Source: Candidatus Latescibacterota bacterium
GTDB taxonomy: Bacteria; Latescibacterota; UBA2968; GCA-2709665
Length of the DNA stretch: 64,000 nucleotides
Assembly (NCBI GenBank): GCA_965248435.1
Contig: OZ252100.1
Span: 3,360,001 to 3,424,000 of the forward strand
Direction: 5' to 3'
Positions 10,112-15,133 of this stretch are shown piece by piece (the stretch's first letter is position 1; each line of letters starts with the position of its first letter). The notes under the pieces are model-generated. The model saw only the letters and a program-made list of their open reading frames with translations, did not search any database and was not told the origin of the DNA. Made by a program: the position numbers and the translations under genes.

Positions 10112-10257
10112 CGATCTGACCTTTATAGCTTGACGGCTAAGCGGATGGCTTTCCGTTGCGTTTTGAGAATTTGCATCTTATTTTTGGTTGATAGGTTATC
10201 TGGACACGCTTTTGAAATAGAGTGTGTCCGGTTTTTTGTTGTGTCGCTGGGAGGACG

Positions 10258-11373
10258 ATGATCACGACACACACCGATGTCGTTGGAAGCCTGCTCCGTC
10301 CGGAGCGGCTGCTGAATGCTCGGGAAGACCTCGCGGCTGAGAGAATCACGGAAACGGACTTCAAGAAGGTCGAAGACCGCGCCGTCGATCATGCCGTCGC
10401 GATTCAGGAGGCGGCGGGACTTGGGGTGGTGACGGACGGAGAGATGCGACGTCAGTCGTTCCAGAGTCAGATGACCGAGGCGGTCGATGGATTTGGAGAA
10501 TACTCGCTGGATGCCTTCTTGTGGGGAGACTGGAAGGGGGATGATTCGGTCGGGGATCTGCACCTGGAGCGCCCGACCGCGCTCGGCGTCGAGCGGAAGT
10601 TGAGAAGGCGTCGCCACCTGAGTGTCCATGAATTCAATTACTTACGGGATCACACGACACGGATCCCGAAGGTCACCTTGCCGAGCCCGAGCCTGTGGGC
10701 GAATTTCTGGTCGCCCGAGCGATCTACGGAGGCCTACTCTTCACTTGACGAATTCCTTTCAGATGTTGCCATCATCCTGCGGGACGAGGTGACGGATCTG
10801 GTGCGTCTCGGGGCTCGGTACATCCAGCTGGATGCGCCACATTATACGCAGTTGATCGACCCGAAGACGCGGGCCTTTTATGAGGCACAGGGGTGGGACC
10901 TGGACCGCTGGGTGAGCGCCGGGATTGAGCTTGACAACGCGGTGATGGGTGACTTTCCTGGTATAACGTTCGGGTTTCACCTGTGACGAGGCAATCAGGG
11001 CAGCCGGTGGCTGCTCGACGGCGGGTACGAGCCGATTGCGGCCAGGATCTTCCAAGGGGTTCGCGCCCAGCGACTTCTGCTTGAATACGATGATGAGCGA
11101 TCGGGTTCCTTCCAGGCACTGAAGGAGGTCCCCGAGGAGAAGATGGTGGTGCTGGGTCTGGTCTCCTCCAAGACGCCGAGGTTGGAGACGCGAGAGGATC
11201 TTGGCGAACGGATCCGGGAAGCCAGTCAGTTCATCTCCTTGGAACGTCTAGCCCTGAGCACGCAGTGCGGCTTCGCGAGCTCTGTCGTGGGCAATCGAAT
11301 CTCAGAAGAAGACCAGAAGCGGAAGCTGGCGCTCGTCACCGAGACGGCGCGGGATGTCTGGAAAGACGCGTAA
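10258..11373 (+). CDS. Cobalamin-independent methionine synthase II (MetE catalytic-domain) family protein, predicted selenoprotein (UGA 10984-10986)
   Basis: GGAGGA RBS; DVVGSLLRP, VTDGEMRR, YIQLDAP, H-L-[TGA]-R-G-N in place of HxCRGN, LLEYD, LSTQCGFASS. ORFs 10222..10986 and 11143..11373 share a frame with no other stop between them. Confidence 0.88.
10998..11016 (+). promoter_or_regulatory. SECIS-like hairpin
   Basis: GGGCAGCC-GGT-GGCTGCTC, 8-bp stem (one G-U) starting 11 nt after the TGA, loop begins with G. Confidence 0.75.
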
Positions 11374-11410
11374 GACATTCGTCATTTGAACCAATCTTTA
11401 GGAGGAGACC

Positions 11411-12376
11411 ATGCTTGTGGGATTGAGGGTTTCGGGTTTTGTGTTCGCCACAATTATGATGGCCTCGTTTGCCCACGCCCAGAAGGAACGACACTTCGCC
11501 TTTACCTATAATGTAGAGATCACTGATCTACCGGAGTCCGCAAAGAAAGTGGAAGTATGGCTGCCGGTCCCGCCGGAGACACCGGAGCAGAAGATCAAAT
11601 CAGTCACTTTTGATTCACCTGTTGTCGGGAAGACGCATACCGAGGCGAGTTACGGGAATCGGATCTGGCACGCGCGAACGACTCCGCCGGTGAATGGCAC
11701 GTTGAGCATCACCCAACGCATCGACGTCGTTCGAAAAGAACAGAGTTTAGACCGGGATAGAAAACTGGCAGGCACAAACGGGTCTATGAATGAGTTTCTC
11801 AAAGAGAATCGCATGGTACCGCTGACTCCACGATTTCGTAAAATTGCTCTGGAGGAGACGAAGGATTCAGAGGCAGTCGTGGATCAGGCTCGCGCGCTGT
11901 ATGATTATGTGATGGGTCAGATGGCCTACGACAAGTCGGGCAAGGGATGGGGACGTGGGGACGCGAACTACGCCTGCGATATCCGAAAGGGCAACTGTAC
12001 GGACTATCACAGTCTGTTTATTGCACTGGAACGTTCGCTGGAGACGCCCGCCAGGTTCTGGATCGGGTTTCCTCTGCCGGAGGAAAGGGGGAAAGGGACG
12101 GTCGGCGGCTATCACTGCTGGGCTGAGTTCTGGGTACCGGACGCTGGCTGGATGCCTGTCGACATTTCAGAGGCGGACAAGCATCCAGAAAAAACGGAAT
12201 ACTTCTTCGGCAATGTGGACGAGAACCGGATTGTCTTCTCCGTCGGCCGAGACCTGACCCTGGAACCTGCGCAGCAGGGGGAGCCGATCAACTTCTTTGT
12301 TTACCCGTATGTCGAAGTGGACGGAAAGCCCTGGGCGCGTGTCGACACGCGCTTTTCCTATCAGGATCTGGATTAG
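11411..12376 (+). CDS. Exported transglutaminase-like domain protein
   Basis: AGGAGGAG RBS, signal peptide ending AHA, catalytic triad motifs GNCTDYH, HCWAEF, WMPVD. Confidence 0.88.
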   Translation: MLVGLRVSGFVFATIMMASFAHAQKERHFAFTYNVEITDLPESAKKVEVWLPVPPETPEQKIKSVTFDSPVVGKTHTEASYGNRIWHARTTPPVNGTLSITQRIDVVRKEQSLDRDRKLAGTNGSMNEFLKENRMVPLTPRFRKIALEETKDSEAVVDQARALYDYVMGQMAYDKSGKGWGRGDANYACDIRKGNCTDYHSLFIALERSLETPARFWIGFPLPEERGKGTVGGYHCWAEFWVPDAGWMPVDISEADKHPEKTEYFFGNVDENRIVFSVGRDLTLEPAQQGEPINFFVYPYVEVDGKPWARVDTRFSYQDLD

Positions 12377-12394: not shown

Positions 12395-13690
12395 ATGGCC
12401 GTGGAATCCGCCAAAACACTCGCCGAGTGGGTGAGCGACGCAAGACAGCGGACGATGGATCTGGTGGCCGACCTGACCGACGACCAGCTGATGGGGCCGA
12501 GCCTGGACACCGTCAATCCGCTGCGATGGGAGATCGGGCATATGGCCTGGTTCCAGGAGAAGTGGGTACTGCGGCACGTGGGGAAACAGGCGCCCTACCG
12601 GAAGAACGTGGACGCGCTTTATGATTCGATCGCGATCCCTCACGATGACCGCTGGGACCTGCCGCTCCCGAGCCGGGAAGAAACACTGACCTACATCCGT
12701 GAGGTCCGGGACCAGGTGCTGGAACGGGTTGAGCAGGGTCTGAGTGATAAGGAAGCCTACCACATCCTCTACTCCGTGTTTCACGAAGATATGCACACCG
12801 AGGCGTTTACGTATACCCGGCAAACGCTTGGCTACCCGCCTCCTGAACTGGCTGGTGTGGCTCCAGGCCCATCGGGAGGGGGGCGGCTGGATGGAGATGT
12901 GGAGATTCCTGGAGGAGAGTTTATGCTGGGTGCCGGCCAGGACGAACCGTTCGTGTTCGACAACGAAAAGTGGGCCCATCCGGTTACGCTGAAGCCTTTC
13001 TCGATTGCCCGGGCGCCGGTTACGCAGGCAGAATTCGCTGCGTTCGTCGAGGACAGGGGGTATGACCGGAAGGAGTTGTGGAGAGAGGGAGGTTGGGAGT
13101 GGCGGGAAACGGAAAGGGCGGACCATCCGGTCTACTGGCGAAAGGAGTCAGGCGGCGAGTGGCAGCGCCGTGATTTTGACCGTTGGGTTCCGCTCGAATC
13201 GGATCGACCCGTGATCCACGTCAACTGGTTCGAGGCGGAGGCATATTGCGCGTGGGCAGGTCGACGCCTGCCGACGGAGGCGGAGTGGGAGGCCGCGGCA
13301 GCGTGTGGGCACGACGGAGGAAGCCTATCCAAAAGTAAGCGCCGGTTTCCCTGGGGGGATGAGGGTCCCGAATCGGGGAAGGCCCATCTGGACTGGCGCG
13401 ACATGGGCTGTGCGGAGGTTGGGGCCTATCCAGAAGCGGAAAGTACTTTTGGCTGTCGACAGATGATCGGCAACGTTTGGGAGTGGACGAGCAGTGTATT
13501 TCTGCCTTATCCAGGATTCATTGCGGACCCATACGAGGAGTACTCTGAGCCGTGGTTCGAGACCCGCAAGGTCCTGCGCGGCGGCTCCTGGGCCACACGA
13601 TCCCGCATGCTGCGCAACACCTGGCGAAACTATTTTACGCCGGATAGACGGGATGTGATGGCTGGACTCCGAACGGTCGCAAAGTCGTGA
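12395..13690 (+). CDS. senA: Selenoneine synthase SenA (EgtB-related; DinB_2 + FGE-sulfatase domains)
   Basis: NPLRWEIGHMAWFQE signature, LYDS...HDDRWDLPLP, iron motif HEDMHTE, RLPTEAEWE, GNVWEW, VLRGGSW; stop overlaps the senB start. Confidence 0.88.
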   Translation: MAVESAKTLAEWVSDARQRTMDLVADLTDDQLMGPSLDTVNPLRWEIGHMAWFQEKWVLRHVGKQAPYRKNVDALYDSIAIPHDDRWDLPLPSREETLTYIREVRDQVLERVEQGLSDKEAYHILYSVFHEDMHTEAFTYTRQTLGYPPPELAGVAPGPSGGGRLDGDVEIPGGEFMLGAGQDEPFVFDNEKWAHPVTLKPFSIARAPVTQAEFAAFVEDRGYDRKELWREGGWEWRETERADHPVYWRKESGGEWQRRDFDRWVPLESDRPVIHVNWFEAEAYCAWAGRRLPTEAEWEAAAACGHDGGSLSKSKRRFPWGDEGPESGKAHLDWRDMGCAEVGAYPEAESTFGCRQMIGNVWEWTSSVFLPYPGFIADPYEEYSEPWFETRKVLRGGSWATRSRMLRNTWRNYFTPDRRDVMAGLRTVAKS

Positions 13691-14637
13691 GGATTTCCCT
13701 GATCACACCGGCACCGGCCGGCTCGAGGAAGGGAAATCGGGTGACCGCGCAGCGCTGGTCCAAAATCCTTCGTGGACTGGGGCACCGCGTGGACGTTGCT
13801 CAGGAATATGCGGGGAAGCGGTGCGACCTGATGGTGGCGCTCCACGCGCGGCGCAGCCACGCTTCGATCGCTCGGTTTCAGGAGGATCATCCGGACCTCC
13901 CCGTGGTCGTCGCGTTGACGGGGACGGATCTCTACGGAGATATTCACACGGATTCAGACGCTCAGCGGTCTCTGGACCTGGCATCGCGTCTGGTGATGCT
14001 GCAGCCCGAGGGACTTCGGGAGCTCCCGAAGCGCCACCGGCAGAAGGCGCGCGTCATCTATCAGGCGTTTACGTGACCGCAAGGAGACTTTGCCCCCAGG
14101 AAGGGGGTATTCGAGGTCTGTGTACTGGGTCACCTGAGAGAGGTGAAGGATCCGTTTCGCGCTGCTGAGGCAACCCGCCTGCTACCGGCGGAATCGCGGA
14201 TTGAAGTCCTGCAGGTAGGTGGGGCACTCGATGAAGCGAGTGCGGCGAGGGCGAAAGTGGAGGCGGCTGCCAATTCGAGATACCGGTGGCTGGGGGAGGT
14301 TCCGAGGTGGCGCGCCGTGAGGATCCTGGCTCGCAGCAGGTTGCTCGTAATGAGCTCGATTATGGAAGGGGGCGCGAACGCGGTGTCGGAGGCACTGGCG
14401 TGTCGCGTCCCTGTGCTTTCATCTCGAATCTCAGGCTCCATCGGTCTGCTGGGAAAGGATTATCCAGGCTATTTCAAGGTGGGAGATACGCAGGGGCTGG
14501 CCAGGCTTTTGAGAAAGGTGGAGACGGATTCAGACTTCCACAAAGGGCTTAAGCGTCATTGCCGACGTCTGGTCTCCATTGTGAATCCTGCGGACGAAAG
14601 GAGGAGGTGGAGATCGCTGCTCCAGGAACTGGGATAG
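13687..14637 (+). CDS. senB: Selenosugar synthase SenB (GT-B glycosyltransferase) with in-frame UGA at 14074-14076
   Basis: GNRVTAQRW, VALHARRS, LTGTDLY, VIYQ, GHLREVKDP, SIMEGGANAVSEA. ORFs 13687..14076 and 14143..14637 are the same frame separated only by one TGA. Confidence 0.85.
14085..14119 (+). promoter_or_regulatory. SECIS-like hairpin
   Basis: Upper stem TGCCCCC-AGGAA-GGGGGTA (14091-14109); lower stem AGACTT/AGGTCT with a 4-nt bulge; loop starts 21 nt after the TGA. Confidence 0.55.
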
Positions 14638-14662
14638 CGGTTCGACCGGAGTTGTCTCGATT

Positions 14663-15133
14663 ATGTCTTTGAAGGAAGAGACATTCACGTTCTGGGATCC
14701 GCTTGAATTGGTCGACGGGGATCTTCGCCTCGTTCTGGTCGAAAAGCGATTCGGAAATCCTGCCAGGGATATTGTGCCTGCATACAAGTTCGAAATGAGG
14801 AAGATCGACACCTGGGAACCGATCGGGAGGGTCGATCTCCGAATCGGCAATACGGAGCATATCGTGATGTATTCGGGACACCTCGGCTACCGGGTGGAGC
14901 CACTCTACCGGGGTGAGAGATTCGCGGCAAGAAGCTGCGTGCTCCTGTTCGACCTGGCGAGGCGCCACCAAATCGATCCACTCTGGATCACCTGCAATCC
15001 TGAGAATGTCGCATCGCGTCGGACGTGCGAGCTTATTGGAGGTCGTCTCATCGAAATTGTGGCGCTACCGGAGAATACGGATATGTACAGTGAAGGCGAG
15101 CGCTTCAAATGTCGCTATCGCGTCGATGTATGA
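14663..15133 (+). CDS. GNAT family acetyltransferase
   Basis: GHLGYRVEPLYRGERFA, ITCNPENVASRRTCE. Confidence 0.85.
   Translation: MSLKEETFTFWDPLELVDGDLRLVLVEKRFGNPARDIVPAYKFEMRKIDTWEPIGRVDLRIGNTEHIVMYSGHLGYRVEPLYRGERFAARSCVLLFDLARRHQIDPLWITCNPENVASRRTCELIGGRLIEIVALPENTDMYSEGERFKCRYRVDV

Follow-up and report, generated by a model that had tools for sequence, protein, structure and literature searches.

Why does senB, the gene for selenosugar synthase, carry an in-frame TGA in a bacterium for which TGA is an ordinary stop codon? The question concerns a stretch of 64,000 nucleotides from a Candidatus Latescibacterota bacterium (assembly GCA_965248435.1, contig OZ252100.1, positions 3,360,001 to 3,424,000; hereafter the window), in which senB directly follows senA, the gene for selenoneine synthase. 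TGA is even the commonest stop of this genome: of 592 long open frames in its first 2 Mb, 281 end with it. The features concerned are the following, in window coordinates.

12395..13690, plus strand: senA, selenoneine synthase (EgtB-like), 519.6 bits with the NF041186 SenA model (cut-off 420)
13687..14637, plus strand: senB, selenosugar synthase, 316 codons with one in-frame TGA at codon 130
14074..14076, plus strand: predicted selenocysteine (Sec) codon, UGA, residue 130, with C as next base and TGA at the same column in relatives
14143..14637, plus strand: C-terminal fragment open reading frame (ORF) according to gene callers, starting at Val153, past the GHLR motif

The senB frame opens with a GTG at 13687 that overlaps the TGA stop of senA (GTGA). 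It continues through VIYQAFT, the TGA at 14074-14076 and PQGDFAPRKGVFEVCVLGHLREVKDP, and stays open until the TAG at 14635-14637. The initial annotation of this DNA, made from its letters, had reported an in-frame TGA after VIYQAFT; this was confirmed, the frame being otherwise open. Without read-through, senB is reduced to two ORFs, 13687-14076 (129 residues) and 14143-14637 (164 residues), the second of which, as that annotation also pointed out, loses the GHLR motif (G148-H149-L150-R151) by restarting at Val153. With read-through, the protein aligns with positions 1-309 of the 310 in TIGR04348, the SenB model (404.8 bits, cut-off 300). SenA was encoded directly 5' of senB in 9 of the 9 relatives' loci that were fetched, and of 29 loci searched by tblastn, 27 contained a match to senA. 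We hold with high confidence that selenocysteine is encoded by the TGA at 14074-14076, which makes SenB of this bacterium a selenoprotein. Recoding is preferred to a nonsense mutation because the TGA falls in a conserved column and is kept in metagenomes, because the codons around it are under purifying selection, because a covarying hairpin follows it and because the genome encodes the selenocysteine machinery.

Six-frame scanning of 168 genomes from this phylum recovered SenB in 31, nine of which showed one in-frame TGA. Eight of the 31 genes had it in the identical column, in six genera and three families (designated f1, f2 and f4). These were the window genome (G000) with G004, G002 and G006 in f1, where all four genes have the TGA; G037, G042 and G038 in f2, where the fourth gene has Cys; and G058, the only f4 gene. 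In family f3 the TGA was found in 0 of 22 genes, site 130 being Pro, Ala, Val or Leu (20 of the 22 genes examined). All eight TGAs lie in the context Q-[S/A]-x-[T/G]-U-P, where U is Sec. The Cys-form f2 gene, G049, reads QSFTCPPG; Cys is also found in P0014, a sister of G049 with the same flanks, and in P0122. A degenerate DNA pattern of the TGA context gave three matches among metagenome contigs, two of them identical to the gene of G042, and metagenome locus L072 proved to be one further SenB with TGA at site 130. All nine Sec-type genes (eight genomes and L072) read TGACC, because Pro131 is invariant. The remaining TGA of the scan, in G109 (locus L042), lies elsewhere (GATW-*-LPGSS). It was set aside as support for Sec, since it is at a different site and is a Tyr-to-stop change relative to the congener L041; it is a probable nonsense mutation or sequencing error.

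For pairs with computable dS, the ratio of nonsynonymous to synonymous substitution rates (dN/dS) ranged from 0.07 to 0.22 upstream of the TGA and from 0.09 to 0.36 downstream of it, indicating purifying selection on the 3' half of the gene as well. In most pairs of the eight Sec-type genes dS was above 1 or not computable; the TGA has therefore outlived synonymous-site saturation. The codon was also retained in contigs of two independent seawater metagenomes, in which TGA and hairpin were unchanged while 13-22 differences from the window were found elsewhere; in one of these contigs, 13 changes within senB led to 6 amino-acid replacements. Thus a recurrent linker TGA in related senB genes, support for the codon itself and the dN/dS of the 3' half, all proposed as checks in the initial annotation, spoke for a functional codon. 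More generally, a near-identical senB (roughly 98-99% over window 13600-14700) was present in contigs of several seawater or marine metagenome studies, so that the organism or close strains are marine and widespread. An RNA contig of run X18 spans 14071-14279, with the TGA 3 nt from the contig end, and was not counted as expression since DNA carry-over is possible. In run X5, coverage was limited to short conserved pieces and was uninformative on codon 130.

The RNA downstream of the TGA was then considered as a candidate selenocysteine insertion sequence (SECIS), with the following elements.

14091..14109, plus strand: core of the candidate bacterial SECIS, in which UGCCCCC and GGGGGUA pair over 7 bp around the apical loop AGGAA at 14098-14102
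14085..14119, plus strand: extended two-part hairpin of the window genome, whose lower 7-bp stem is absent from the consensus structure of relatives

In the minimum-energy fold, the 50 nt from the TGA formed a hairpin in two parts, with 7 pairs in the lower stem and 6 in the upper (13 in all), at -19.4 kcal/mol. Its lower stem begins 8 nt, its upper stem 15 nt and its apical loop 21 nt after the TGA. The two-part 13-bp hairpin with an AGGAA loop was thus as first described, but its start had been placed 21 nt after the codon, which is the distance of the loop. A competing GCAAG/UUUGC pairing, also raised at that stage, can be drawn but appears in neither the minimum-energy nor the centroid fold. 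RNAalifold on the eight Sec-type genes of the phylum predicted exactly one helix, the 7 pairs at 14091-14109. This stem was paired in 51 of 56 cells (91.1%), compared with 48-64% in slid controls. Compensatory changes were seen in four of its seven pairs, among them two in G037 from C-G to U-A (wobble-to-wobble), and the covariation score was 0.393 versus 0.214 in shuffles, none of 500 reaching the real value. The covariation that the initial annotation had suggested looking for is therefore present. At the same positions, the 47 SenB genes without TGA-130 were paired in 106 of 329 cells (32%). Mean 30-nt folding energies were -11.6 kcal/mol for the Sec-type genes versus -5.7 kcal/mol for 46 non-TGA genes (Mann-Whitney p 3.8e-5, a test that ignores kinship; row L061, with a misplaced site, was left out). 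The 30 nt of the window's own senB folded at -12.9 kcal/mol.

The legend of Fig. 2 in PMC13188914 gives for bacterial SECIS elements a loop of 3-9 nt with a G within its first two positions, an upper stem of 4-16 bp, a distance of 16-37 nt from the UGA and an energy of at most -7.5 kcal/mol. By that legend, the senB hairpin lies within all four constraints, with a loop of 5 nt, GG from position 2, a stem of 6-7 bp, a spacing of 21 nt and an energy below the limit. The loops of all nine Sec-type genes are NGG or GGA. In the Cys-form gene of G049, six of the seven stem pairs were kept and the loop GG was lost, a remnant that fits a conversion from Sec to Cys.

The genome is equipped to read such a codon, as the following operon indicates.

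G000:C1:1062483-1067069, minus strand, outside the window: selA, selB, Sec-type selD and tRNA-Sec in a single operon

Scores were 370.8 bits for selB, 568.6 bits for selA and 371.7 bits for selD, and the tRNA-Sec was found. The selD gene carries its own TGA (SCGG-U-ASK). The hairpins after this TGA and after that of a MetE-like gene of the same genome, described below, have a geometry like that of senB. SelA was present in 8 of 8 TGA-130 genomes, in 71 of 76 f3 genomes and nearly universally in the class; its presence is a necessary but non-discriminating condition for reading the codon as Sec. A single SelD exceeded the model cut-off, the one in the sel operon, 2.3 Mb from senAB, and no senC adjoins senAB. 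It follows that there is no dedicated senC and that SenB and SelA draw on the same selenophosphate source.

These elements suggest the following sequence of events. If decoding follows the pathway usual in bacteria, the 14091-14109 hairpin would act as a SECIS and recruit SelB with Sec-tRNA(Sec) to a ribosome paused at UGA130. Sec would then be inserted in the loop joining the two Rossmann domains, four residues past the sugar-binding Gln126. Were Sec-tRNA(Sec) missing, release factor 2 (RF2) would end translation after residue 129, leaving a fragment that lacks H149, R151, K154 and E227 and would be devoid of activity. If UGA130 is decoded by Sec-tRNA, full-length SenB, and therefore selenosugar and selenoneine, would depend on the SelD-SelA line. 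SenB would at the same time compete for selenophosphate with the very line on which its own synthesis depends. The initial annotation had proposed that full-length SenB is made only when Sec-tRNA(Sec) is available, and the conserved recoding site with its downstream hairpin supports this proposal. No conserved restart was found that would rescue the C-terminal part: of the nine Sec-type genes, one has an in-frame start (ATG, GTG or TTG) in the interval from the TGA to GHLR.

Several observations weigh against a selenocysteine codon with a dedicated SECIS. Taken alone, the window hairpin has weak significance, with a z of -1.83 and equally good folds in 8 of 200 dinucleotide shuffles. Depending on the gene, shuffles of synonymous codons fold as well in 2-44% of trials; the hairpin is partly a by-product, because the region encodes P-R-x-G with Pro, Arg and Gly codons. 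A Gly-to-Arg change disrupts one pair of the stem in G042 and G038. Searching 13600-14700 against Rfam with E values of up to 10 allowed gave two matches, both at chance level, and no SECIS; to our knowledge, Rfam holds no general bacterial SECIS model. Among the best 120 full-length homologues, site 130 is a residue other than Cys in 117, which is unusual for a selenoprotein. Finally, the eight TGA-130 genomes are related and may represent one event that was long kept. A tree of 77 SenB rows left the backbone unresolved, with the Sec types not forming one clade, and an approximately unbiased test on 44 rows did not reject a single Sec clade (p 0.268).

The position of residue 130 in the protein bears on its possible role. 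The AlphaFold model of SenB (mean predicted local distance difference test score, pLDDT, 93.8) was superposed by Foldseek on SenB of Variovorax paradoxus (8jjn) with a TM-score of 0.92 and an rmsd of 2.1 A. Invariant in a 43-sequence alignment were N17, T20, H53, T78, T80, D81, Q126, H149, R151, K154 and E227, as well as P131, with G133 and P137 conserved to at least 90%. According to PMC10891094, the catalytic or binding residues of the V. paradoxus enzyme include H153, R155, K158 and E231, which correspond to H149, R151, K154 and E227 of the window protein. From family, fold and residues, the window gene is predicted to encode a selenosugar-forming enzyme. In the AlphaFold model, residue 130 lies in a coil (124-141) that leads from the final strand of the N-terminal domain to the opening strand of the C-terminal one. 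Its V. paradoxus counterpart belongs to a linker loop, residues 131-145 (PMC10891094). Sec130 is four residues past Gln126, and the aligned Ser134 of V. paradoxus is three past Q131, a residue described as hydrogen-bonding the sugar in PMC10891094 and PMC11237966. Site 130 in the best 120 full-length homologues was Ala in 67, Lys in 22, Pro in 10, Arg in 8, Val in 4, Gly in 4, Cys in 3, Ser in 1 and Leu in 1. The initial description of a variable linker site rather than a conserved Cys thus held. Two TGA-130 genomes read Cys-Thr-Sec, and such CxU spacing is known from redox selenoproteins (PMC13188914).

SenB appears to be interrupted at other positions as well. Short SenB pieces were collected from a large protein database, and the best 120 of 384 N-terminal and best 120 of 208 C-terminal pieces past threshold were inspected. 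The N-terminal pieces ended at residue 129 (n=22), 144 (n=29) or 170 (n=30), with 39 scattered ends, while C-terminal pieces started at residue 146 (n=27, M/V-LGHLR) or at the Val153 position (n=18). The window's own pieces are among the entries, as P0124 (129 residues) and P0244 (126 residues). Pieces ending at 144 (within P0126-P0228) and starting at 146 (within P0245-P0276) define a break at FEV|C|VLGHLR. Residue 145 is Cys in 119 of the best 120 full-length homologues and Val in V. paradoxus SenB. Two Poribacteria records, MCZ6677102.1 and MCZ6677103.1, are consecutive on one 13.9-kb contig, the first ending at 144 and the second starting at 146; they are annotated as unrelated genes, "hypothetical protein" and "glycosyltransferase". 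Such split records at site 145 probably correspond to a form with Sec in place of Cys, judging from protein records. Residue 137 is the last of N-terminal pieces P0144, P0146, P0230 and P0234, which stop short of the Arg/Lys138 column; this could be one more recurrent stop site, the fourth, or a matter of chance.

At site 171 the interruption was seen in DNA. Three of 16 SenB genes of SAR324 have a TGA there, in the context LLPxS[S/T]-TGA-IRVLH, where relatives have Arg or Asn.

L094, L096 and L097 (genomes G233, G225 and G226): SAR324 SenB genes with TGA-171, all three genomes with selA

In these genes a hairpin GGGC-GGN-GCCC follows, with its loop 21 nt past the TGA; the nearest Arg-form relative has the same hairpin. 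The best 120 full-length homologues had Arg (81), His (13), Gln (9), Lys (6), Leu (4), Gly (2), Cys (2) or Thr (1) at site 171. In the model, residue 145 sits in a core strand and residue 171 immediately ahead of strand two of the C-terminal sheet, an end of the sheet that, from Rossmann topology, should point away from the cleft. In-frame stops in SenB were found in 0 of 17 Tectomicrobia, 0 of 26 members of the phylum of G172 and 0 of 25 loci of assorted phyla. The latter are the stop-free loci among 26 from other phyla; the remaining one, L070, has five stops and was taken as a frame problem.

Why, then, would the UGA be kept? One possibility, which we consider tenable while giving it well under even chances, is that it makes SenB output track the level of charged Sec-tRNA, the side chain itself being dispensable. 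Consistent with this, homologues of the active type accept Ala, Lys, Pro, Arg, Val and Gly at site 130, and V. paradoxus SenB, active in vitro, has Ser134 there (PMC10891094). In-frame stops occur at three positions (130, 145 and 171) in different lineages. Two of these are non-Cys sites, the third has Val as its V. paradoxus equivalent, and at site 171 the TGA replaces Arg in genomes that all have selA. Moreover, a single SelD is shared by SenB and SelA. On the other hand, Cys (in G049 and its sister P0014) is the sole replacement within the Sec clade and represents a single event, although Arg, Gly, Ser and Leu are each one base away. The 22 f3 SenB genes also do without TGA-130 despite the frequency of selA in that family. 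We know of no precedent for a selenium gate based on Sec recoding.

Alternatively, the selenol of Sec130 might act near the cleft, with Cys as a poorer substitute, a purpose to which we give only slightly lower chances. It might keep the selenosugar, which is sensitive to air, bound in a Se-Se adduct, serve as a selenium relay or protect the enzyme. Sec130 is indeed close to the sugar-binding Gln126 and directly precedes the invariant Pro131, Sec and Cys occur as a pair with identical flanks, two genomes have the Cys-Thr-Sec motif, and the TGA was retained over saturated dS though single-base routes to tolerated residues existed. Against a chemical role stand the 117 of 120 best homologues without a thiol at the site and the characterised enzyme, which functions without one. 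There was no sign of a partner thiol, and no SenA cysteine column specific to Sec-type genomes was found. The other two stop sites also count against it, one lying in the core strand (145) and one by the C-terminal sheet (171), at the end that should point away from the cleft. Altogether, we lean slightly towards a selected dependence on Sec-tRNA as a possible purpose, with a chemical role almost as likely and other or weak effects accounting for the remainder.

Explanations that dispense with selenocysteine fared far worse. It is very unlikely that a near-cognate tRNA (for Trp, Cys or Arg) reads through a leaky UGA-C. No stop context in E. coli leaks more than UGA with C as the next base, and TGACC is found in all nine Sec-type genes, a uniformity already explained by the invariant Pro131. 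Against such read-through stand the full Sec machinery and the covarying hairpin of SECIS geometry at the right distance, and the loss of this hairpin in non-TGA homologues is not expected of plain leakiness. A split enzyme, whose N- and C-terminal domains are made by termination and reinitiation and then associate, is still less probable. The TGA does lie at the domain boundary of the GT-B fold (AlphaFold model; PMC10891094), and in the window genome an AAGGAG stands 4 nt past it. This AAGGAG is unconserved, the first in-frame start, GTG 14143, deletes GHLR, one of nine Sec-type genes has an in-frame GTG ahead of the opening strand of the C-terminal domain, and the protein sequence encoded by the 11-17 codons that follow the TGA is conserved. 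Least probable of all is the nonsense mutation or pseudogene that the initial annotation had retained as a real alternative: public gene calls do split the gene (P0124, P0244) and G109 offers a real example nearby in the phylum, but it is contradicted by a TGA shared by eight genomes of three families with saturated dS and low downstream dN/dS, by intact catalytic residues, by an intact and coupled senA and by the TGA kept in two metagenomes.

Selenocysteine at UGA130 being the preferred explanation, the gene can be compared with known systems. V. paradoxus SenB (TIGR04348; PDB 8jjn, 8jjq, 8jjt, 8fbx and 8rz3) belongs to the same family, with the same fold and the same partnership with senA. 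The window protein has the equivalents of its N20, T23, H58, T83, T85, Q131, H153, R155, K158 and E231. The V. paradoxus enzyme contains no Sec, its residues at sites 130, 145 and 171 being Ser134, Val149 and Asp175. Sec-type SelD (TIGR00476), of which this genome has one, is likewise a selenium-pathway enzyme that needs Sec for its own synthesis; there, however, Sec replaces a conserved catalytic Cys, whereas the SenB site is Ala, Lys or Pro in most homologues. Decoding of the Escherichia coli fdhF type resembles the proposed mechanism by a downstream hairpin with a small G-containing apical loop at a consensus distance. The senB hairpin is unrelated to it in sequence, and its stem consists largely of Pro, Arg and Gly codons, so that it stands as a candidate element. 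A regulatory parallel is offered by prfB, the RF2 gene, whose autoregulation by +1 frameshift relies on competition at an in-frame stop that sets the yield of full-length protein and reports the level of the factor. The yield of full-length SenB would be set by a similar competition; prfB senses its own product via frameshift, whereas senB would sense Sec-tRNA(Sec), in a regulatory role that is hypothetical.

While the decoding mechanism would be the ordinary bacterial one, its use in an enzyme of selenium-metabolite synthesis, at non-Cys positions and at several alternative sites, would be unusual. The portions consulted of four SenB papers (PMC10891094, PMC10702425, PMC11237966 and bioRxiv 10.1101/2022.04.13.486033) make no mention of a Sec form of SenB. 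The terms "SenB" and "glycosyl" are absent from the main texts of PMC13188914 (a 2026 review) and of the BSepDB and deep-Sep papers, a listing in supplementary tables being possible. In the literature searched, no paper named SenB a selenoprotein, though it may have been listed earlier in tables of selenoprotein families.

SenB would thus add a selenoprotein family, one whose genes public pipelines cut in two. Since annotation splits these genes, surveys of selenoneine producers undercount or misread the lineages concerned. Sec at mostly non-Cys positions, with three alternatives, would also run against the rule that Sec marks a catalytic redox Cys, and such placement defeats search methods based on Cys/Sec pairs. 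A further idea, more speculative and in our opinion unlikely, is that UGA was gained at least three times, at positions irrelevant to catalysis (130, 145 and 171), as a selenium valve. If true, selenoneine synthesis would be licensed only when the Sec-tRNA pool is full, selenoproteins being served first with selenophosphate, and this would be the first Sec recoding to act as a metabolic allocation switch rather than through selenol chemistry. Because SenB would compete with Sec synthesis for selenophosphate, its internal Sec codon provides a testable model of how a cell ranks the uses of a scarce element.

Beyond senA-senB, gene order was unconserved among the relatives' loci examined. A GNAT acetyltransferase gene (window 14663-15133, plus strand) lies 3' of senB and was not next to senAB in the other relatives examined. 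A gene for a secreted transglutaminase-like protein (window 11411-12376, plus strand) precedes senA, which it adjoins elsewhere in G058 only. Hercynine supply is encoded apart from senAB, by the following gene.

C1:3140840-3141742: egtD, hercynine supply

Further 5' of senA is a MetE-like gene of the cobalamin-independent methionine synthase family (window 10258-11376, plus strand), found near senAB solely in the window genome and G060 among the relatives' loci examined. It has a TGA at 10984-10986, within GFHL-U-RGNQ, followed by an 8-bp hairpin with a GGU loop (z -2.4). Its read-through product aligned with positions 9-368 of 368 of NF005085 at 246 bits, under the model cut-off. From these features, the MetE-like gene is probably a second selenoprotein gene of the locus. 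Just 5' of it, a strong terminator-like hairpin of 13 pairs with a T run occupies window 10200-10231 on the plus strand.

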